A DNA stretch of 64,000 bases. It comes from Christensenellales bacterium (lineage in GTDB: Bacteria > Bacillota > Clostridia > Christensenellales > UBA3700). The notes beneath the pieces are model-generated. The model did no database searches. It was given only the letters and a program-made list of their open reading frames with translations, and was not told the DNA's origin. The stretch covers positions 106,555-170,554 of the forward strand of contig JBJETT010000004.1 in assembly GCA_051883455.1 (NCBI GenBank), in the 5' to 3' direction. Below are positions 16,391 through 55,218 of this stretch, one piece after another. Position 1 is the stretch's first letter; each line of letters starts with the position of its first letter. The translations under genes were made by a program, and so were the position numbers.

Positions 16391-16398
16391 AATAATCT

Positions 16399-16520
16399 TC
16401 CTTTCTCATCCAGACTATACTGTCGGTATAGGAATTGCACCTATTCGGCATCGCATAAAGATTTACGACGTTTGTGGACTCTACCACCGGTGAGGAATTG
16501 CACCTACCCTCAAAGAATTT
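16399..16520 (-). ncRNA. FMN riboswitch (RFN element)
   Basis: Minus strand TCTTTGAGGGTAGGTGCAATTCCTCACCGGTGGTAGAGTCCAC...GGTGCAATTCCTATACCGACAGTATAGTCTGGATGAGAAAGG matches the RFN consensus; promoter TTGACA(16558-63)-N17-TATAAT(16535-40). Confidence 0.95.
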
Positions 16521-16582
16521 ATTTGATTGATAGAATTATAAATCGTTTGCAAATCAATGTCAAGTATAATATAATTGATTAT

Positions 16583-24354: not shown

Positions 24355-25764
<1,410 letters not shown>

Positions 25765-25787
25765 TCATTCTAAATCAAATAAAATGG

Positions 25788-25813
25788 GTCGGTTGAAATA
25801 TACCGACTTTTTT
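25788..25813 (+). terminator. Intrinsic terminator after gdhA
   Basis: GTCGGT-loop-ACCGAC plus TTTTTT. Confidence 0.75.
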
Positions 25814-26175
25814 ATATCGACGACGCTTGGTATAGTCGTAGAACTAAATAGTGAAACATAGGCTGATGAGTAAAAGTATGACGTTATATCTTGGAAAATG
25901 ACAATTGATAGAAGCATTAATGCTATTAGAGTAAAATAAAAAAGTCAAACTAAAACCCAAACCGTGTTGGCAATTTTTTGCAATGAAAGAGTTGAGAGTG
26001 GATGGGAGAAAAGAGAGCCTAGAGTAAATCTAAAGCGACACAAATTGCATTTGGAGCATAGCAAAAATTGAAGGGAAGATGAGTGGGAAGTTGCTTTGAA
26101 AGAAAATATAGACAAAATGCGGTAGATTTGGGATAGAAATAGGGGTGGAAATTGCATAAAATTGTTGAAATTGTA

Positions 26176-26306
26176 TGTGGATAAGTCGGTTATATTTGGC
26201 TTGATAATTTTGGTGAAAAACCGATACTTGTGGGCAAAGAGGGACAAAAAATCGACTTTTTGCAATGTGGATAACTGAGGTCAAATGTGGATAATGCTGT
26301 GGATAA
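26176..26306. promoter_or_regulatory. DnaA-box cluster (4 perfect co-oriented TGTGGATAA plus 1 degenerate)
   Basis: TGTGGATAA at 26176, 26266, 26286 and 26298; TGTGGGCAA at 26229. Confidence 0.8.
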
Positions 26307-26500
26307 CTGCCCAAAATAGAGAAAAAAACCGTTAAAAAACCAAAAAATCGACAAAAATATGCAAATTTTATATTTTGTATAAAAATATTTTATTTTGGGG
26401 CTTTTTCCTTGCAAAAATCTATCAAAATATGGTAGTATATGGGCAATAAGATTATTTATCTTTTTTCTAATTAATTTGGACAAACTTTTAGGAGAAAAAT

Positions 26501-26989
26501 ATGGCTAAAGTCGGCGTAATAATGGGTAGCCTCAGCGACCTTGACGTAGTAAAACCTGCAATCGAAATACTCAAAAAATTCGGCGTGGAAGTCGACGCCA
26601 GAGTTATCTCTGCGCACCGTACGCCTAACGAGGCTCACGAGTACGCTTGCAATGCCGAGGCTAACGGTATCGAGGCGATAATTTGTGCTGCGGGCAAAGC
26701 GGCTCACCTAGGTGGAGTGATTGCCGCATATACGTCGCTACCAATCATAGGACTACCTGTCAAGAGCTCCACTATGGACGGATTGGACAGCCTGCTCTCT
26801 ATGGTGCAAATGCCGTCGGGCATACCTGTAGCTTGCGTGGCTATCAACGGCGGACTCAACGCGGGACTTCTCGCTATACAAATGCTGTCTATCAAATATC
26901 CCGAGCTTGGCGAAAAGATGAAAAAGTACAAGCAAGATATGGCGGATAAAATCAACGGCGACGACGCCAAACTACAACAACTCGTATAA
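26501..26989 (+). CDS. purE: N5-CAIR mutase
   Basis: IMGSLSD, SAHRTP, AGKAAHLGG, DGLDSLLSMVQMPSGIPVA. Confidence 0.97.
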   Translation: MAKVGVIMGSLSDLDVVKPAIEILKKFGVEVDARVISAHRTPNEAHEYACNAEANGIEAIICAAGKAAHLGGVIAAYTSLPIIGLPVKSSTMDGLDSLLSMVQMPSGIPVACVAINGGLNAGLLAIQMLSIKYPELGEKMKKYKQDMADKINGDDAKLQQLV

Positions 26990-27087
26990 TCGTGGCGGGT
27001 GTTGCTATGAAGAGAAATTATTAAAAATTACTATATTTGTATGGGTTTGGAAGCAAGCCCATATTCCATTTATTCAAGGAGGACAAA

Positions 27088-28104
27088 ATGGCTATTGATT
27101 ACAAGTCTGCAGGCGTGGACGTAGAGGCAGGTTACGAAGCGGTTAAACTGATGAAACAGTACGTAAAAAAGACGTACGACGGCAACGTGCTGGGAGATCT
27201 CGGCAGTTTCGGAGGCTTTTATGCGCTCGATGACAGAGAAGACGGAGATTGCTTGGTAGCGGGTACCGACGGCGTGGGTACGAAACTCAAATACGCCTTC
27301 GTATTGGACAAGCACGACACTATCGGTATTGACGCCGTGGCTATGTGCGTCAACGATATCGTTTGTCAAGGCGCAAAACCACTGTTGTTCTTAGACTACA
27401 TCGCTCTATCTAAGTTGGAGCCTAACAAAGTGGCAACTATCGTCAAGGGCGTGGCTGAGGGCTGTTGCCAATCGGGGTGCGCACTCATCGGCGGTGAGAC
27501 TGCCGAGATGCCGGGATTTTATGCCAAGGACGAATACGACATTGCGGGCTTTGCGGTAGGTATCGTCAACAAAAAGAAGATTATCAACGGCAAAAATATC
27601 AAGGTGGGAGATAAACTCATAGGTTTAGCAAGTAGCGGTATACACTCCAACGGATACTCTCTAGTCAGAAAGCTATTCGGCGAGGATAAGGAGAGCCTCA
27701 ACAAGTACAACGAGACGCTGGGTTGCACCCCTGCCGAAGTGGTGTTGACACCTACGAGAATTTACGTCAAGACCATACTCAGTATTATAGAAAAATTCGA
27801 GATTAAGGGCATTGCGCATATCACGGGCGGTGGCTTTATTGAAAACGTGCCTCGTATCATTCCTAAGGGTATGGGCGTGCATATCGATAGAAGCAGTTAT
27901 CCGTTGCCTAAGCTCTTCAAGGCTCTTCAAGAGATTGCGGGCATCGACGACACCAAAATGTGCAACACCTTCAATATGGGTATAGGTATGGTGCTAGCCG
28001 TTGACCCTCAAATCGCAAACGCCGTCACCGACGAACTCAACGCTATGGGCGAAAAGGCTTATATCATCGGCGAAGTGACGGACAAAGAGGGCGTAGAGCT
28101 ATGA
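27088..28104 (+). CDS. purM: AIR synthetase
   Basis: [48 protein letters not shown]. Confidence 0.97.
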
Positions 28105-28679
28105 AGAGAATAGCAATATTCGCTTCGGGTGGCGGTAGCGACATGCAGTCGGTGATAGACGGCTGTGAGAGCGGTCTTATAGACGGCAAGGTAGTAGCCG
28201 TAGTGACCAACAAGGACGGCATCGGCGCGCTGGATAGAGCTAAGAAACATGGCATCGAGAGTAGAGTCTATAGGCTAGGCGACTACGTTGACGCCGAGGA
28301 CAGAGATAGAGCTATCATTGATTATCTAGTCGAAAAGGACGTAGAGTTGGTGGTGCTGGCAGGATATCTAGCGATAGTCACCCCATGCCTCGTGGACAAG
28401 TATAGAGGCAAGATTATCAATATTCACCCATCGCTGATACCTAAGTTTTGCGGAAAGGGTATGTATGGACTCAAGGTGCATACAGCCGTTTTGCAAGCGG
28501 GCGAAAAAGAGAGCGGTGCAACGGTACACTTCGTGGACGAGGGTGCGGACACGGGCGAGATAATCGCTCAAGTCAAAGTGCCCGTCTTAGAGGGCGACAC
28601 TCCTCAAACTTTGCAAGAGAGAGTGCTAGAACAAGAACATATTCTTTTGCCGTCGGTCGTGGCAAAATTGTGTAAATAA
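28101..28679 (+). CDS. purN: GAR formyltransferase
   Basis: [31 protein letters not shown]. Confidence 0.97.
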
Positions 28680-28703
28680 TCAATACGTATAAGGAGAAAT
28701 AAA

Positions 28704-30242
28704 ATGAAAAAAAGAGCATTGATAAGCGTATCGGACAAGAGTGGCATAGTTGACTTTGCCTCTCGCCTCGTGGGCTTCGGCTACGAGATTATCTCTACGG
28801 GCGGAACGCTCAAGGTCCTCAAAGAAGCGGGACTCGACGCAATCGATATCAGTTCGATTACGGGTTTCCCAGAGTGCCTCGACGGCAGAGTAAAGACCTT
28901 GCACCCTAACGTGCACGCAGGTCTTTTGGCCATGAGAGATAACGCCGAACATATGGCTTTTCTTGAAAAGATGAATATCAATACCATAGATATCGTGGTG
29001 GTAAACCTATATCCTTTCAAAGCTACCGTGTCTAAGCCAAACGTGGACTTGCAAACAGCTATCGAAAATATCGATATCGGTGGACCTACGATGCTCAGAA
29101 GTGCGGCTAAAAATTACCAAGACGTTGCAGTCGTGGTAGACCCTGCCGACTATGCTAAGGTTTTGGCGGAGCTCGAAGAGGGCGAGATTAAGAAAGAAAC
29201 CAAATTCTACCTTATGTACAAGGTATATCAACATACCTCTTACTACGACACCCTCATTGCCAATTATCTTAGAAGCAAGCTGGGTATCGAATTCCCTGAC
29301 CAATTTACCATGGCTTTTGACAAGGCGCAAGATATGCGCTACGGCGAAAACCCTCACCAAAACGCGGTTTTCTACAAAGAAGCCTTCGACGTCAAAGGCT
29401 CGCTTGCTACCGCCGTTCAACTTCACGGCAAAGAGCTGAGCTACAATAATATCAACGACACCAACGGCGCACTCGACTTGCTAAGAGAGTTTGACGAGCC
29501 GACTATAGTTGCCGTCAAGCACGCCAACCCTTGCGGAGTGGCTACCGCTGCAACTATTTCCGAGGCTTTCTACAAAGCCAACGCGGCAGATCCAACATCT
29601 ATCTTCGGCGGAATAGTGGCTGCCAATAGAACTATAGACAAGGCGACTGCCGAGCAAATCCATAAAATCTTTATTGAGATAGTAGTAGCTCCCGACTTCG
29701 ATGAGGACGCACTTGCAATCCTCACCCAAAAGCCAAATATTAGACTACTCAAACTCGACGGTATAGCAAGCCCAATCCCACAAGGCTGTTACGATATGAA
29801 GAAGGTGCTCGGCGGATTGCTCGTGCAAGAGTACGACAAAATGGTCGTGGACATGGATAAGGTTGTGGACGTAACCGAAAAGAAAGTCACCAAAGAGCAA
29901 ATGGAAGATTTGATATTCGCAATGAAAGTTGTCAAGCACACCAAGTCCAACGCTATCGTGGTGGCTAAGGACAAGACTATCCTCGGTATAGGCGGAGGTC
30001 AAGTCAATAGAATTAGAGCTACTAAACAAGCTATCGAGCATTCTTTGACCTCGACCGAGGGCGCTGTGCTTGCTTCCGACGCTTTCTTCCCGTTCGATGA
30101 CTGCGTAGAGGCGGCTCACCAAGGCAAAATCGCCGCAATCATGCAACCCGGCGGAAGCAGAAACGACCAACTCAGTATTGACGCTTGCAATAGATACGGC
30201 ATTGCAATGGTATTTACAGGCGATAGACACTTCAAACACTAA
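28704..30242 (+). CDS. purH: AICAR transformylase/IMP cyclohydrolase
   Basis: [45 protein letters not shown]. Confidence 0.98.
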
Positions 30243-30251
30243 GGAGAGAAT

Positions 30252-31508
30252 ATGAGCGTACTCGTAATTGGAAGCGGCGGTAGAGAACATGCAATTTGCA
30301 TGGCACTCTCCAAGAGCCCTAAAGTAGACAAAATTTATTGCTTGCCGGGCAATGCGGGCATTGCCGAGATAGCCGAATGCCATAATATCGGCGTGATGGA
30401 TTTTGATAATATCGTCAAATTTGTCCAAGAACACAAGGATATCGACTTGACGGTGGTTGCGCCCGACGACCCGCTCGCAGGAGGTCTCGTTGACTTGCTA
30501 GAGAGCAATGGTATGCGCGCATTCGGTCCTAAGAAAAACGCGGCTATCATAGAGGCGAGCAAGGCTTTTAGCAAAAACCTTATGAAAAAATACGGTATTC
30601 CGACCGCCGACTACGTTGAGTTCGACGACTGCGACGGCGCACTTGAGTACGTAAGCAATGCAAAATATCCGCTCGTAGTCAAAGCCGACGGTCTAGCTCT
30701 CGGCAAAGGCGTAATTATATGCAACGACAAGCAAGAGGGCATTGACGCCGTCAAAGAGATGATGATAGACGGCAAGTTTAAGGATGCGGGTAAGAAGGTC
30801 GTAATTGAAGAATTTATGGTAGGCAAAGAGGTGTCGGTGCTGTGCTTCTGCGATGGCAAGACCGTTGTGCCTATGGTGTCTTCGCAAGACCACAAGAGAG
30901 CGCACGACAACGACGAGGGACTCAATACGGGCGGTATGGGAACTTTTGCTCCGTCTAAGATTTATACCCCCGAAATGGCTCAAGAGGTGTACGACACTAT
31001 CATCGTGCCAACCGTCAAGGCTATGAGCGCCGAGGGAAGAACCTTCAAAGGCGTACTATACTGCGGACTCATGTTGACTAGCGACGGCGTAAAGGTGCTG
31101 GAATACAACGCGCGCTTCGGCGACCCCGAGACACAAGTCGTTTTGCCTAAGCTGGAGAGCGATATATACGATATATTCAACGCTTGCATAGACGGCACGC
31201 TCGACAAAGTGGATATCAAATGGAACGATAAGACTGCCGTATGCGTAATAGTTGCGAGCGGTGGTTATCCCGAAGCCTACGCCAAGGGTTTGCCTATCAC
31301 TATAGACAAGCTTGATGACGGCGTTATCTTGTACCACGCGGGTACTGCCAAGAAAGACGGCGTGCTCGTCACCAACGGCGGAAGAGTGTTGGGAGTGACG
31401 GCGCTTGCCGACGATATGGACAAGGCAAGAGAAATCGCCTACGCCAACGTCAAAAAAGTACACTTTGACAAAATGTTTTATCGCACGGATATAGGAATAA
31501 AGAAATAA
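30252..31508 (+). CDS. purD: GAR synthetase
   Basis: GSGGREHA, KADGLALGKGV, NTGGMG, EYNARFGDPE, TNGGRVL. Confidence 0.98.
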   Translation: MSVLVIGSGGREHAICMALSKSPKVDKIYCLPGNAGIAEIAECHNIGVMDFDNIVKFVQEHKDIDLTVVAPDDPLAGGLVDLLESNGMRAFGPKKNAAIIEASKAFSKNLMKKYGIPTADYVEFDDCDGALEYVSNAKYPLVVKADGLALGKGVIICNDKQEGIDAVKEMMIDGKFKDAGKKVVIEEFMVGKEVSVLCFCDGKTVVPMVSSQDHKRAHDNDEGLNTGGMGTFAPSKIYTPEMAQEVYDTIIVPTVKAMSAEGRTFKGVLYCGLMLTSDGVKVLEYNARFGDPETQVVLPKLESDIYDIFNACIDGTLDKVDIKWNDKTAVCVIVASGGYPEAYAKGLPITIDKLDDGVILYHAGTAKKDGVLVTNGGRVLGVTALADDMDKAREIAYANVKKVHFDKMFYRTDIGIKK

Positions 31509-31519
31509 GGATAAGGACA

Positions 31520-34500
31520 ATGGTTAGAAGAATTTTCGTAGAGAAAAAACAAAACTACAACGTTTCGGCAAAAAAGACGCTTGCTGACGTCAAAAACGTG
31601 CTCGGTATCAACGCCGAGGACGTGAGAGAATTGATTAGATACGATATCGAAAATATCGACGACGCGGTGTTTGAGAGCGCCAAGAGTACGATTTTTGCCG
31701 AAGCTCCCGTCGACAATCTATACGACGAGCTCCCCGATTTGGCGGGATATACCGTATTCGTGGTAGAGTATTTGCCGGGTCAGTACGACCAAAGAGCAGA
31801 CAGCGCTATGCAATGCGTGCAGTTGCTATCTATGGGACCAAGACCACTGATTAAGTGCGCCAAAGTCTACGCAATCAAGGGTTGCACCGACGCTCAAATA
31901 GCCGCAATCAAGAAGTACCTCATCAACCCAGTAGAGGCGAGAGAGGGCGAAATGGCTTTGCCTGACACGCTAGTTAGCCAAGTCACCCTACAACTTACCG
32001 TGCCTACAATAGACGGCTTTATCGCAATGAGCGACGAGCAAATCGCTAAGTATCACGGCGAAAAAGGCTTTGCTATGAGCGTATCTGACCTCAAGTTCGT
32101 AAGAGATTATTTTGCAGGTGAAAAGCGCGACCCTAGCGAAACCGAGCTAAAAGTAATCGACACGTATTGGTCGGATCACTGCCGTCATACCACCTTTGCT
32201 ACCGAGATTACCGACGTGGATATCAAGTCGGACAATCCACATCTATTCAAGGCGCTAGATTTGTACAACGACTTGTATCAAGAGTTTAATGCAAAAAGAG
32301 AAGACAAATACAAATGTCTTATGGATATAGCCACCATTGCCGTCAAGAAGTTGAAGAAAGAGGGCAAACTCGACAACCTCGACGTGAGTGACGAAATCAA
32401 CGCTTGCAGCGTGGAAGTCGACGTCGACGTGGACGGCAAGGACGAAAAGTGGCTGATAATGTTCAAAAACGAAACGCACAACCACCCAACGGAGATTGAG
32501 CCTTTCGGTGGAGCGGCTACTTGCCTCGGCGGTGCGATAAGAGACCCGCTGTCGGGTAGAACTTACGTGTACCAAGCAATGAGAGTTACGGGTGCCGCCG
32601 ACCCTAGAAAGCCTATTGAGGAGACACTAAAAGGCAAGCTGCCTCAACGCGTTATCACCAAGACGGCGGCTGCGGGTTATAGCAGTTACGGCAACCAAAT
32701 CGGCTTGGCAACGGGACTTGTTGCCGAGATGTATCACCCTAACTACGTGGCTAAGAGATTGGAGACGGGTTACGTCATCGCGGGAGCACCGAAAGAAAAC
32801 GTGGTGAGAAGAAAGCCTATCGAGGGCGATATCATCGTGCTTCTCGGCGGTGAAACGGGTAGAGATGGTTGCGGTGGCGCAACGGGAAGCTCCAAAGCCC
32901 ATACCGAAAAATCGGTAGAAGTGTGCGGCGCGGAAGTGCAAAAGGGTAACCCTCCTACCGAGAGAAAAATTCAAAGACTATTCCGCAACAAGGACGTAGC
33001 TAGACTTATCGTCAAGTGCAACGACTTCGGTGCGGGCGGTGTGTCGGTAGCTATTGGTGAACTTGCCGACAGCCTCGACATTTATCTAGACAAAGTACCT
33101 AAGAAATACGAGGGATTGTCGGGTACGGAGCTTGCTATATCCGAATCGCAAGAGAGAATGGCGGTAGTGCTCGCTAAGGACACCGTAGAGCAATTTATCA
33201 ACTATGCAAAAGAGGAAAATCTCAACGCCGTAGCCGTGGCAGAAGTTACCGACAACGGCAGAATGAGAATGTTCTACGCAGGCAACTGTATCGTTGACCT
33301 CAAGAGAAGCTTCCTCGATACCAACGGCGTCAAGCAAACTACCAAGGCAGTGGTCAAGGACAACGCCACCGATTATATGAATAAGCCTGACGAGGAGAGT
33401 GCGAAGCTCTTTGCCAAGGGCGACTTTGCGGGCGTGCTATATCACGAGCTCTCCCGTCTCAACGTATGTTCCACCAAGGGGCTTGGCGAAACCTTCGACT
33501 CGACCATCGGCGCGGGTAGCGTGCTGATGCCTTTTGGCGGAAAATATCAACTTACTCCTGCCGTGGCGATGGCGGCTAAACCTCCTGTAAACGGCAAGAC
33601 CGATACTGCTACCGTGTCGAGTTACGGTTGCTCTCCACAACTGATGAGCGCGTCTCCTTTTGTGGGTAGTGTGTATTCTATCGTTTTGTCGCTGTCTAAA
33701 TTGGTGGCTTGCGGTGTGAGAGTCGATACCATAAGACTTTCGTTGCAAGAATTCTTTAAGCGACTAGGCTCCGACCCAGAGAGATGGGGACAGCCTTTGT
33801 CGGCACTGCTCGGCGCACTATACGCTCAAATCGGACTCGGCGTGGGCGCTATCGGCGGTAAGGACAGTATGAGCGGCACTTTTGAAAATATCGACGTTCC
33901 GCCAACGCTAATCAGTTTTGCTATGGGTATAACCAAGGCTAGCAAGGTCATCTCCAATACCTTTGCATTCGACGGCAAGGTCAAGGATATATATCACGTG
34001 TCTTTGCCAAGGGACGAGTACGATATGGTCGACTTTGGCAAGACGCTAAAGCTCTACGACGCTATCAACGACGCTATCGTGGCTGGCAAAATCAAGGCTT
34101 GCAACGTGGTGGAAGAGGGCGGCGTGCTCGCTAGCGTATTCAAGGCTTGTATGGGTAACAAGGCGGGCACCGATTGGGAGGCGCTGACTGTGGATATGCT
34201 TACTCCACGATTCGGCGACTTGGTAATACTTGCCGAGGATATAGACGGCTTGAAGGGCTTCGACGTGCAAAAGGTCGCTAGCCTCAACGGAACTTATACT
34301 TGCGACTTATGCGGCGTAGAAGTCAAGATGGATAAGGCTATCGAAGCCTTTACGGGTACGCTCGAGAGCGTATTCCCAACTACGGCGCCTGCTAGCGGAG
34401 AGGCTAACAACCTCATTTGCGTGGCTCGCAAGCACGAGAGAGCGGCGAGAAATATCGTCAAACCTACCGTTCTCATTCCGGTATTCCCGGGAACTAACTG

Positions 34501-35257
34501 CGAATACGACACGGCAAGAGCCTTTGAGAGAGCGGGCGCAAAAGCAGATATATTTATCGTCAAAAATCAATCTTCTAAGGATATAGAAGAGACGGCAAAA
34601 GCCTTGGTTAAGGCACTAGATAGGGCGCAAATACTTGCTTTTCCGGGTGGATTTAGCGGAGGCGACGAGCCTGACGGAAGCGGTAAATTTATCGCAACGA
34701 CCTTCAAAAACCCTGCTATTGCCGAGGCGGTAATGAAACTGCTATATAATAGGGACGGACTTGCAATAGGTATATGCAACGGCTTCCAAGCACTCATCAA
34801 GTTGGGACTCGTGCCTTACGGCGACATTAGAGAACAAAAAGCCGACGCTCCTACCTTGACCTTCAACAATATTTCTCGACACGTGTCGACTATTGTCAAC
34901 GTTAGAGTGGCTACCAATAAGTCACCTTGGCTCAACGCTTGTCGCGTCGACGAGGTGTACAAGGTTGCCGTCAGCCACGGCGAGGGAAGATTTGTCTCGG
35001 GACAAGAAGAACTCGACAAGCTCGTCAAAGCGGGGCAAGTGGCTACTCAATACGTCGACGTCTTTGGCAACGCGACTATGACTTCGCCTTACAACCCTAA
35101 CGGAAGTATGAAGGCTATCGAAGGCATTATCTCCCCTGACGGCAGAGTGCTCGGCAAGATGGGTCACAGCGAAAGAATAGACGACAATCTCTACAAAAAC
35201 GTAGAGGGCAACTATGATATGAAACTCTTTGAAAGCGGAGTGGAATACTTCAAATAA
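31520..35257 (+). CDS. purL: FGAM synthase, large single-chain form with fused glutaminase domain
   Basis: WSDHCRH, ETHNHPT, DFGAGG, FPGTNCE, GICNGFQ, SHGEGR, MGHSER. Confidence 0.97.
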   Translation: MVRRIFVEKKQNYNVSAKKTLADVKNVLGINAEDVRELIRYDIENIDDAVFESAKSTIFAEAPVDNLYDELPDLAGYTVFVVEYLPGQYDQRADSAMQCVQLLSMGPRPLIKCAKVYAIKGCTDAQIAAIKKYLINPVEAREGEMALPDTLVSQVTLQLTVPTIDGFIAMSDEQIAKYHGEKGFAMSVSDLKFVRDYFAGEKRDPSETELKVIDTYWSDHCRHTTFATEITDVDIKSDNPHLFKALDLYNDLYQEFNAKREDKYKCLMDIATIAVKKLKKEGKLDNLDVSDEINACSVEVDVDVDGKDEKWLIMFKNETHNHPTEIEPFGGAATCLGGAIRDPLSGRTYVYQAMRVTGAADPRKPIEETLKGKLPQRVITKTAAAGYSSYGNQIGLATGLVAEMYHPNYVAKRLETGYVIAGAPKENVVRRKPIEGDIIVLLGGETGRDGCGGATGSSKAHTEKSVEVCGAEVQKGNPPTERKIQRLFRNKDVARLIVKCNDFGAGGVSVAIGELADSLDIYLDKVPKKYEGLSGTELAISESQERMAVVLAKDTVEQFINYAKEENLNAVAVAEVTDNGRMRMFYAGNCIVDLKRSFLDTNGVKQTTKAVVKDNATDYMNKPDEESAKLFAKGDFAGVLYHELSRLNVCSTKGLGETFDSTIGAGSVLMPFGGKYQLTPAVAMAAKPPVNGKTDTATVSSYGCSPQLMSASPFVGSVYSIVLSLSKLVACGVRVDTIRLSLQEFFKRLGSDPERWGQPLSALLGALYAQIGLGVGAIGGKDSMSGTFENIDVPPTLISFAMGITKASKVISNTFAFDGKVKDIYHVSLPRDEYDMVDFGKTLKLYDAINDAIVAGKIKACNVVEEGGVLASVFKACMGNKAGTDWEALTVDMLTPRFGDLVILAEDIDGLKGFDVQKVASLNGTYTCDLCGVEVKMDKAIEAFTGTLESVFPTTAPASGEANNLICVARKHERAARNIVKPTVLIPVFPGTNCEYDTARAFERAGAKADIFIVKNQSSKDIEETAKALVKALDRAQILAFPGGFSGGDEPDGSGKFIATTFKNPAIAEAVMKLLYNRDGLAIGICNGFQALIKLGLVPYGDIREQKADAPTLTFNNISRHVSTIVNVRVATNKSPWLNACRVDEVYKVAVSHGEGRFVSGQEELDKLVKAGQVATQYVDVFGNATMTSPYNPNGSMKAIEGIISPDGRVLGKMGHSERIDDNLYKNVEGNYDMKLFESGVEYFK

Positions 35258-37221
35258 TGGCGTTTTTACCAACCGAAAAACACGAAATATCCGATAGAGT
35301 GGATTTGGTGTACGTGATAGGCGAGGCCTACGTAGACCACCCGTCATTCGGACACGCAATAGTATCGAGACTCATACAAAGTATGGGTCTCAGTATTGCT
35401 ATAATCACCCAACCGCAAAAGGACGAGGATTATTGCATTTTCGGTGAGCCAAAGATGGGCTTTTTGGTGTCTAGCGGTGTGGTGGACAGCATGGTCAACA
35501 ACTATACCGTTGCCAAGATAAGAAGAAGTCGTGACGTGTACAGCGAGGGCGGACAAGTAGGTCTTCGCCCCGATAGAGCCGTGGACGTCTATTGCAACAC
35601 GCTAAAGAGGCTCTATCCCGATAGCGCTATCGTAATAGGCGGTATTGAGGCTTCGCTAAGAAGATTTGCGCACTACGACTATTGGGCGGACAAGGTGTTG
35701 CCTAGCATCCTCGTGTCGAGCCACGCCGACCTACTAATTTACGGTATGGGCGAGCGACCTATCAAGGAGATTGTCGGATACCTCAAAAGGGGCGTTCCGC
35801 TGTCTAAAATCAAGGACGTGAGGGGTACTTGCTATCTTAGTGACTTCGATACGCTCCCTAACAAAATCAAAGAGGACATAGATAGCCGTAAGGCTGTATT
35901 TTGCGAGAGCTACGAGGCAGTCAAGAGCGACAAGCTCGCATACGTGAGGGCATTCAATATCCAGACCAAAACCAACGACCACGCGCACGGCAAGGTGGTT
36001 TTGCAAAAGCACGGCGACAAGTATCTGGTGCAAAATCCTATGCAACTGCCTATGTCTAGCAAGGAAATGGACGAGATTTACGCTCTACCTTACGAGAGAA
36101 CTTATCACCCCAAGTATACCAAGGGCGTGCCTGCTATCGAAGAGGTCAAGTATAGTATCACCTCGGTGCGAGGTTGTTACGGCAACTGCAACTATTGCGC
36201 CATTGCCTATCACCAAGGTAGAGTTGTGCAAAAACGCTCCAAAGAAAGTATAGTGCGAGAGGCGGTGGAATTTACTAAGGACGCCGATTTCAAAGGATAT
36301 ATACACGACGTGGGAGGACCTACAGCCAACTTCCGTGACCCCGCTTGCGCTAAACAATGGGATAAAGGGGTGTGCCCCGATAGGCAATGTATCGGCTACA
36401 AGCCTTGCCCTAATATGAAGGTAGACCATAGCGAGTACCTCGATTTGCTACGCACTCTAAGAAAGTTGGAAGGCGTAAAGAAGGTATTTATCCGTAGCGG
36501 TATAAGATACGACTACGCAATGTACGACGGCAGCGACGAGTTTATCGAAGAGGTAATCAAATACCACGTGTCGGGACAACTCAAAGTCGCACCCGAGCAC
36601 GTCAGCGACAACGTGCTAAAAAATATGAACAAGCCAAACTTTGACTTGTACCTTAGATTTAAGCAAAAGTTTGACGATATCAACAAAAAGCTAGGCAAAA
36701 AGCAATATTTGGTGCCTTACCTAATCTCTTCGCACCCCGGCTGTACGCTAAACGACGCTATCAACCTTGCGCTCTATCTCAAGTCGATAGGATATATGCC
36801 CGAGCAGGTGCAAGACTTCTATCCGACGCCGTCCACCAAGTCGACGTGTATGTACTATACGGGTATCAATCCCGACACTATGCAAGAGGTGTACGTGCCG
36901 AGAAGCAAAAGGGAAAAGCAACTGCAAAGGGCGTTGATGCAGTATAGAAAAAAGGAAAACTACAATCTAGTCAAAGAGGCTCTAATCGAGGCGGGTAGAC
37001 AAGACCTCATTGGCTTCAAAGAGTCGTGTCTTATCAAACCGCTAAAAGAAGAGGCAAAGTCGGGCTATTTAGAGCAAAAGCCGAAGAATACGAGTGGTAA
37101 AAAAGCCGTCAAGACGCGTAGTGGTGTGGTGTACGTAGACCAAGCCAAGATAGATAAAATCAACTCGGACAAAAAGCGCGCCAAGGGCAAATCTACCCCA
37201 AAAAAGAGAGGTAAAAAGTGA
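35257..37221 (+). CDS. ygiQ: YgiQ-family radical SAM protein with Lys-rich tail
   Basis: GEAYVDHPSFG, RGCYGNCNYC (CxxxCxxC), APEH, QVQDFYPTP. Confidence 0.93.
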   Translation: MAFLPTEKHEISDRVDLVYVIGEAYVDHPSFGHAIVSRLIQSMGLSIAIITQPQKDEDYCIFGEPKMGFLVSSGVVDSMVNNYTVAKIRRSRDVYSEGGQVGLRPDRAVDVYCNTLKRLYPDSAIVIGGIEASLRRFAHYDYWADKVLPSILVSSHADLLIYGMGERPIKEIVGYLKRGVPLSKIKDVRGTCYLSDFDTLPNKIKEDIDSRKAVFCESYEAVKSDKLAYVRAFNIQTKTNDHAHGKVVLQKHGDKYLVQNPMQLPMSSKEMDEIYALPYERTYHPKYTKGVPAIEEVKYSITSVRGCYGNCNYCAIAYHQGRVVQKRSKESIVREAVEFTKDADFKGYIHDVGGPTANFRDPACAKQWDKGVCPDRQCIGYKPCPNMKVDHSEYLDLLRTLRKLEGVKKVFIRSGIRYDYAMYDGSDEFIEEVIKYHVSGQLKVAPEHVSDNVLKNMNKPNFDLYLRFKQKFDDINKKLGKKQYLVPYLISSHPGCTLNDAINLALYLKSIGYMPEQVQDFYPTPSTKSTCMYYTGINPDTMQEVYVPRSKREKQLQRALMQYRKKENYNLVKEALIEAGRQDLIGFKESCLIKPLKEEAKSGYLEQKPKNTSGKKAVKTRSGVVYVDQAKIDKINSDKKRAKGKSTPKKRGKK

Positions 37222-37835
37222 GGCAAGTAACGGCTATACTCATTCAGTCAAGCAATATCGACCGAGCTAACCTCTATCTTGACGGGGAGTTTTGTTGCGG
37301 AATTTCGAGAATAGTGCTGGCAAGCAACAATATCAAAGTCGGTAGTATGCTCAGCGATAGCGACTTGCAAGAGTTGATATTCGAGAGCGAAAAGGACAAG
37401 GCGTGGAACTGGGCTTTGTCGTACATATCTCGCTATACGCCAACTTCGAACGGGCTTAAGAGCAAGCTCTACGACAAGGGCTACAACAAGCCGATAGTCG
37501 AGTATTGCTTGTCCAAAGCAATAGAGTACGGCTATATCAACGACCTAGAGTGGGCAAGGTGCTACGTGGAATACAACAAGGTGGTCAAGGGTGCTAGCCG
37601 TATTAGGAACGACCTCATTGCCAAAGGAATATCCAAAGATATAATTGCGCAAGTTTTGATAGACCTAGACGATGACGAGGACGACGCGATATACGAGGTG
37701 GCTCGCAAGCACGCCAAGACAGGTGACTTGGACGACCCTAAATACGTGGCGAGATTGGCAAGATTTTTGCATGCAAGAGGCTTCTCGAGTGACAAAATTT
37801 TTGCGGTGATAGATAGATTGAAAGCAGAGAGATGA
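37218..37835 (+). CDS. recX: RecA regulator RecX
   Basis: LKSKL..KGY, YINDLEWA..YV, G..RIRNDL..KGI, FL..RGF repeats. Confidence 0.85.
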   Translation: MRQVTAILIQSSNIDRANLYLDGEFCCGISRIVLASNNIKVGSMLSDSDLQELIFESEKDKAWNWALSYISRYTPTSNGLKSKLYDKGYNKPIVEYCLSKAIEYGYINDLEWARCYVEYNKVVKGASRIRNDLIAKGISKDIIAQVLIDLDDDEDDAIYEVARKHAKTGDLDDPKYVARLARFLHARGFSSDKIFAVIDRLKAER

Positions 37836-54949: not shown

Positions 54950-55218
54950 GGTTGTGCATCTATCGTCGACAAGAACTACCCAAGCGTGACTCAGACAGTT
55001 GACTCCCTCAAAGCTACCTCGTGGCACATCGCACGATCTGCTTAATGCTGCTGCGGTCAAGCCCTGACATGGTTCACAGGGTGCAATTGCACAAGACCTT
55101 GTTATCAACGTCACTTATCTGAGGCGGACCTTGCATAGCTCAGGCCTAAGATAGCCTTCAGCTCTGCTGTAGCGGATTGCAGATACAGGGCACCGCTAGC
55201 TCCCCACCTAGCACAACG
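54950..55218 (-). ncRNA. ffs: Signal recognition particle RNA, large (Alu-containing) Firmicutes type
   Basis: Minus strand 5' GTGCTAGGTGGGGAGCTAGCGGTGCCCTGTATCTGCAATCCGCT and helix 8 GAACCATGTCAGGGCTTGACCGCAGCAGCATTAAG match B. subtilis scRNA; ends pair (GTTGTGC/GCACAAC); promoter TTGACA(55247-52)-N17-TATACT(55224-29). Confidence 0.93.

Follow-up and report, generated by a model that had tools for sequence, protein, structure and literature searches.

The intergenic region upstream of the de novo purine operon of this Christensenellales bacterium carries a compact array of DnaA boxes that probably regulates the operon from outside the replication origin; the sign of that regulation is not readable from sequence. 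Candidate DnaA sites are clearly present here, and they are non-random, conserved, and linked in cis to the purE promoter. Binding of DnaA to these sites, and an effect of that binding on transcription, are predicted from this arrangement and from its persistence among related species. All positions given below without a contig or locus name are those of the window, by which is meant the whole 64,000-nt stretch that was analyzed.

DnaA boxes in the gdhA–purE intergenic region

The region in question spans 736 bp (25765–26500; 68% A+T), with gdhA (24367–25764) on one side and purE (26501–26989) on the other. It contains four perfect copies of TGTGGATAA on the plus strand (equivalent to TTATCCACA on the minus strand), starting at 26176, 26266, 26286, and 26298. 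These are the only perfect boxes of the window, where 0.48 would be expected per 64 kb, and four or more occurred in none of 100 shuffles. Three of them are packed into 41 bp as a triple array, in which box 1 (26266–26274; all nine columns invariant across 16 species) is followed after a gap of 11 bp by box 2 (26286–26294) and after a further 3 bp by box 3 (26298–26306). The fourth is an auxiliary box (26176–26184) located 90 bp upstream of box 1. Two poorer copies accompany them, namely a 2-mismatch box, TGTGGGCAA, at 26229–26237 that is co-oriented with the others, and a decayed box, TGAGGTCAA, with three mismatches at 26276–26284; all of these boxes are annotated on the minus strand. Four of the 16 perfect boxes of the genome, plus the 2-mismatch box, lie within 131 bp. 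The original prediction had described four perfect boxes and a co-oriented 2-mismatch copy in an AT-rich 736-bp gap, and both their positions and the base composition were borne out.

A terminator-like hairpin with a T-run closes gdhA (25786–25809, plus strand), and transcription from upstream probably stops there, ahead of the boxes. The minus strand between gdhA and purE also has small ORFs, which were judged to be spurious because the sequence beneath them is not conserved.

On the purE side, the boxes adjoin an AT-rich tract (26315–26465; 76–80% A+T). Five A-tracts phased at about 10.5 bp occur at 26313–26357 on the plus strand and predict an intrinsic bend; their centers are at 26314.5, 26325, 26336.5, 26344.5, and 26355, giving spacings of 10.5, 11.5, 8, and 10.5 bp. 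The phased A-tracts are confined to the genus of the window genome and are not kept by other genera. Beyond them is the extended −10 promoter of the pur operon (26409–26438, plus strand), consisting of TTGCAA (26409–26414), an 18-bp spacer, and TG-G-TAGTAT (26430–26438). The −35 element begins 111 bp past the start of box 3, and the 5′ UTR of purE is only about 55 nt long. Close-set A-tracts followed by this promoter had also been predicted; both are present, and the promoter is conserved across the family. A weak promoter-like match, TCGACA-17-TATTTT (26348–26376, plus strand), may be the counterpart of a better element, TTGACA/G-17-TATATT, in genus g10, an assignment that is uncertain. The g10 element is well kept within that genus, lies 49–61 bp after box 3, and directly abuts an extra box. 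A second promoter was dropped as the basis of a mechanism, as the element is weak or absent in the window genus and in g4.

The operon itself, purE-purM-purN-purH-purD-purL, extends from 26501 to 35257 on the plus strand, its purL encoding a fused FGAM synthase. Tight behind purL on the same strand are a YgiQ-family radical SAM gene, ygiQ (35257–37221), and recX (37218–37835), and the two apparently share the transcription unit of the purine genes. In the window, purE and purM (27037–28104) are separate genes; in sister species G002, they read as a single 485-aa ORF with AIRC and AIRS domains (L019:2719–4176). Elsewhere, the window includes an FMN riboswitch (16394–16521, minus strand; 95 bits) and a large bacterial SRP RNA (54952–55216, minus strand; 175 bits).

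Conservation of the array

Conservation was followed in 74 genomes of this Christensenellales family, the members found all being metagenome-assembled genomes, and in an outgroup of 380 genomes from 41 other families of the same order. The exact pattern TGTGGATAA-N11-TGTGGATAA-N3-TGTGGATAA is present in 32 of the 74 family genomes, in exactly one copy each. Its gaps are invariably 11 and 3 bp, even though gaps of 8–14 and 1–6 bp were permitted in the search, and a reversed-pattern control gave no matches. With up to one mismatch allowed, the array also reaches genera g2, g5, and g6. Outside of the family, the exact pattern was found in 2 of the 380 genomes and at purE in neither. One of these copies (L128:1501–1541, in G124) falls within roughly 1.8 kb of very AT-rich DNA that is free of genes, any ORF there being shorter than 90 aa, while the second (L129) has a type I restriction-modification S-subunit gene on one side and a YitT-family gene on the other.

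An alignment of 16 species showed 24 of the 27 box positions to be invariant and the other three to be at least 90% conserved; the mean column identity of the spacers is 48%. Further invariant islands in this alignment are limited to the −35, the extended −10, the RBS, and the start codon. Conservation in relatives had been proposed as a check on the boxes, and it is clearly strong. Relatives have an auxiliary box with at most one mismatch, facing either way, at 67–105 bp upstream of box 1. In sister species G005/L027, the site of the decayed box at 26276 is a perfect box, and in L030/L055 it is a 1-mismatch box. The occurrence of a fourth perfect box within the 11-bp gap of one sister species suggests an ancestral array of four boxes spaced 10-10-12 bp.

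Linkage to the purE promoter

At all loci where PurE is at least 76% identical and sufficient upstream sequence is available, the array is found about 190–290 bp before the ATG and carries two to five perfect, co-oriented boxes; more distant loci have none there. The gene on the upstream side of the boxes is gdhA in the window genome and in genus g4, icd in g10 and g8, a YjbR-domain gene in g9, a divergent gene of no assigned family in g6, and a divergent DtxR-like gene in g5, where the boxes are about 500 bp upstream. In sister species of the window genus, a gene for a 1130-aa ART/MuF-type polyvalent protein is inserted between gdhA and the boxes. This gene, with ART-PolyVal and MuF_C domains, lies past the gdhA terminator in G002 (L019:4744–8136) and at the same place in G001 and G006. 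The window genome does not have it, and positions 25814–25949 of the window have no counterpart in these three genomes. On the other side, purE is followed by either purM or purC, depending on the lineage. The boxes are thus found in the control region of purE next to six different upstream neighbors, and the linkage survives rearrangement.

The distance between box 3 and the −35 element also varies, with values of 111, 113, 133, 136, 144, 146/147, and 167–169 bp. These distances have a periodicity peak at 11.0–11.25 bp (R = 0.79; p ~0.02 after scanning periods of 10–11.5 bp), a statistic that is drawn from seven, partly dependent distance classes with the period scanned. Such a periodicity of about 11 bp suggests that the array is coupled to the promoter on one face of the helix. 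The original prediction had framed the locus as a non-origin DnaA-box cluster that acts either as a DnaA sink or in direct control of the purine operon. This framing was right, and the comparative data favor the regulatory option over the sink, since the boxes stay with purE despite a changing upstream neighbor and keep a roughly helical distance to its promoter.

Other regulators of purine synthesis

Searches with Rfam yielded no family match in the intergenic region, in the pur operon of the window, or in 19 box-bearing loci. Considering this and the short 5′ UTR, control of purE by a riboswitch or leader RNA was rejected for box-bearing loci. Control by PurR was rejected as well, the N-terminal domain of the Firmicute protein being missing from all 74 family genomes.

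In genus g9, three species lack the boxes and instead carry a ZTP (pfl) riboswitch (L121:1355–1452, L122:1355–1452, and L123:1344–1442) immediately ahead of their purE, which is divergent (53% identity). The reverse is seen in G019, also of g9, where the triple array precedes purE-purC and there is no riboswitch. Neither boxes nor a riboswitch accompany purE in genera g3, g7, and g11. In g3, the gdhA–purE gap is about 165 bp and contains essentially the same promoter; since the promoter is kept there without boxes, DnaA would not be needed for basal pur transcription. The earlier suggestion that the boxes act in place of a purine riboswitch therefore stands in part. Box-bearing loci do lack a riboswitch, and the family lacks PurR, but the element of the three g9 species is of the ZTP and not the purine kind, and the other boxless genera have neither boxes nor riboswitch.

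Boxes elsewhere in the genome and the replication origin

Just 16 perfect TGTGGATAA boxes were counted in the 1.43 Mb of the genome, and the purE array is its strongest box cluster. The count, which had been suggested from the start, revealed one other non-origin cluster (C9:147015–147050), an intergenic group of two perfect boxes and one 1-mismatch box. Its flanks are a divergent cell-wall amidase-like gene and a 552-aa hexosaminidase-like gene, both names having been read off translations. The remaining perfect boxes are singletons that are mostly within ORFs, and one belongs to the dnaA-dnaN cluster.

As originally described, neither dnaA nor dnaN is present within the 64-kb window and G exceeds C on both sides of the array, the GC skew being positive in 32 of 32 two-kb bins. 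The dnaA gene (C9:229175–230527) occurs with dnaN and parA/parB on a separate contig, C9, and the cumulative-skew minimum, which at the array would have meant a true oriC, is at the dnaA end of that contig. In the gap between dnaA and dnaN, an intergenic cluster of five boxes, made up of the TGTGGATAA word and its 1-mismatch variants, lies beside an AT-rich stretch. The purE array is neither at a skew minimum or sign switch nor adjacent to dnaA/dnaN, where Firmicute origins are typically placed, and it has no conserved AT-rich unwinding element 3′ of the TTATCCACA-oriented boxes. Its AT tract is on the side opposite to the DUE of the E. coli and B. subtilis origins and is not conserved beyond the window genus, a GC-rich stretch occurring there in genus g4. 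A simple regular expression for the DnaA-trio had no matches at the array and also none in the genome's own dnaA-dnaN region, so that its lack of matches at the array carries no weight.

On contig C4, about 105 kb separates the array from the skew maximum (~238–240 kb), and this switch coincides with a 100-N scaffold gap (C4:236376–236475). The apparent terminus of C4 could be a scaffolding join, and no convincing match to a dif site was found near the skew maximum. Because the position of the terminus is uncertain in this assembly, we relied instead on G009, a relative in another genus whose 1.815-Mb genome is closed. In G009, the skew turns positive at dnaA (~0.53 Mb) and negative again between 1.42 and 1.50 Mb. 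Its purE array, at 1,599,317, has negative skew on either side and is 100–180 kb beyond the terminus switch and 748 kb from dnaA, half of the chromosome being 907 kb. The array is terminus-proximal and not oriC-proximal in G009, and apparently in the window genome too. There are seven perfect TGTGGATAA boxes in the 1.8 Mb of G009, with three at purE and none near dnaA (532 kb), and its origin must therefore use degenerate boxes. Clearly, the purE array is not an origin.

Proposed function and alternative explanations

Regulation of the pur operon by DnaA, which we favor with moderate confidence, could work as follows. The three co-oriented consensus boxes, with starts at 0, 20, and 32 bp, would nucleate a cooperative DnaA oligomer roughly 110–170 bp upstream of the purE promoter, and the flanking auxiliary box would contribute to the complex. 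The complex would then alter the firing rate of RNA polymerase through bent or looped DNA, and purine nucleotide synthesis would thereby depend on how much DnaA is present and in which nucleotide state, and hence on replication status. Bound DnaA would also be titrated, such that a sink effect would be a side consequence of regulation and not an alternative to it. By analogy with guaBA and nrdAB of E. coli, we lean toward a repressing or modulating role of DnaA-ATP; an activating role of the sda type would fit the upstream position equally well. Blocking of read-through from the upstream gene is an unlikely role, as gdhA has its own terminator and the upstream gene is divergent in g5 and g6.

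Several observations count against control of the pur operon by the array. At 111–169 bp upstream of the −35, the boxes are farther away than classical sites of activators and repressors, with no conserved weak box overlapping the purE promoter. In genera g3, g7, and g11, purE is expressed although no boxes precede it. Moreover, purF and purC, which are elsewhere in the window genome, have no upstream boxes, save for a single 1-mismatch match before one purC copy.

In a bolder version of DnaA control, put forward only tentatively, DnaA would itself be the main sensor by which de novo purine synthesis is set, with its ATP/ADP state being read at the fixed three-box module. In that case, the box-N11-box-N3-box arrangement would amount to a portable “operator” for DnaA, employed elsewhere in the order as well. 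Perfect consensus boxes may be permanently occupied, a state more in keeping with a sink than with a sensor.

A pure sink or inactivation site for DnaA, of the B. subtilis DnaA-box cluster (DBC) or E. coli datA type, would restrain initiation at oriC and have no direct effect on purE, and the array would be upstream of purE merely because that intergenic space tolerates it. Such a role is conceivable, if rather unlikely, for a group of three to five consensus, co-oriented, close-set boxes that is the strongest cluster of its genome, holds three of the seven perfect boxes in G009, and is distant from the promoter. The recurrence of the N11/N3 module in other families, at two places that have no connection with purE, likewise speaks for a sink, and B. 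subtilis DBCs still act, albeit more weakly, at terC-proximal positions (PMC3245932). A pure sink fits less well, however, because the array tracks purE through at least six upstream neighborhoods and two operon layouts, which is unexpected if function is independent of position, and because it is terminus-proximal, whereas known sinks are oriC-proximal and most effective there (PMC3245932). Shifts of the promoter distance in steps of about 11 bp, and the replacement of the array by a riboswitch in sister species, also argue for an effect on purE.

It is improbable that the 9-mers recruit a factor other than DnaA or have a structural role, such as chromosome organization or DnaD/DnaB loading, that is unrelated to the control of purine synthesis or initiation. 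Further conserved motifs do flank the boxes: g1 and g10 share repeats that contain AACCGTT, to which no known binding protein could be matched, and g10 also has a palindrome, GCATATATATGC. Yet the motif is the exact DnaA consensus, and the same word with its 1-mismatch variants forms the dnaA-dnaN cluster of the genome. In B. subtilis, yllB/mraZ is a known DnaA target, and a relative (G019) has the same box upstream of mraZ-rsmH (L012:1516–1524).

Finally, a cryptic, secondary, or relocated origin, in which the dense array would be paired with the adjacent 76–80% A+T tract as an unwinding element, was rejected as extremely improbable on account of the same-sign skew on both sides over 64 kb, the canonical dnaA-dnaN cluster and parAB at the skew minimum of C9, the closed genome of the relative, where the switches are located elsewhere, and the misplaced and unconserved AT tract.

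Implications

DnaA regulons have been mapped in few model bacteria and differ widely among them. If DnaA acts at purE as proposed, the de novo purine operon would be added to the DnaA targets of Firmicutes, with strong comparative support and in an abundant, uncultured gut lineage. Full-text searches of the literature found no report of DnaA boxes at purE, nor one for Christensenellaceae. The strictly spaced three-box module would also offer a simple substrate for studying cooperative DnaA binding off-origin. Moreover, the occurrence of a ZTP riboswitch at the same position in sister species suggests a single regulatory niche that is filled by very different mechanisms. Were DnaA indeed a purine sensor, a direct feedback loop would link the adenine-nucleotide pool, replication initiation, and purine production.

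Comparison with known systems

Non-origin DBCs have been described in B. subtilis at yqeG-sda, ywlC-ywlB, yydA-yycS, ywcI-vpr, gcp-ydiF, and trmE-jag (Okumura et al. 2012, PMC3245932), and such clusters are known to control adjacent genes as well as to damp initiation. The purE array resembles them in being an intergenic cluster of at least three consensus boxes outside oriC that occurs in a Firmicute and is kept among related species. Sinks of B. subtilis are most effective near oriC, and Firmicute DBCs are mostly oriC-proximal (PMC3245932), a position that is typical of DBCs without strictly defining them; the purE array, in contrast, is terminus-proximal. It is also set apart by its putative target, since the de novo purine operon is not known to neighbor any DBC, and by the compact, strictly spaced N11/N3 core of three boxes, the B. 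subtilis clusters being loose.

In E. coli, guaBA is repressed and nrdAB is regulated by DnaA (reviewed in PMC8203912). As in these cases, DnaA boxes at purE lie in the control region of nucleotide-synthesis genes, an arrangement that couples precursor supply to the initiator, or is predicted to do so here. The phylum is a different one, however, and the pathway is IMP synthesis instead of the GMP branch or ribonucleotide reductase. Moreover, the E. coli boxes are at or inside the promoter or gene, whereas those of the purE array, with its three to five perfect boxes, are more than 100 bp upstream of the −35.

The datA, DARS1, and DARS2 loci of E. coli are likewise non-origin DnaA-box clusters, and they act on DnaA and not directly on replication. 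Of these, datA requires IHF, and the core boxes I and II of DARS are oppositely oriented. The core boxes of the purE array, unlike those of DARS, are all co-oriented, and neither an IHF site nor a role in DnaA nucleotide exchange can be inferred for it.

Lastly, the array shares its position immediately upstream of purE or the pur operon with the usual controllers of Firmicute pur genes, namely ZTP and purine riboswitches and PurR. Those controllers, absent from the box-bearing loci, are RNA or PRPP-sensing mechanisms, and a ZTP riboswitch takes the place of the boxes in three g9 species.
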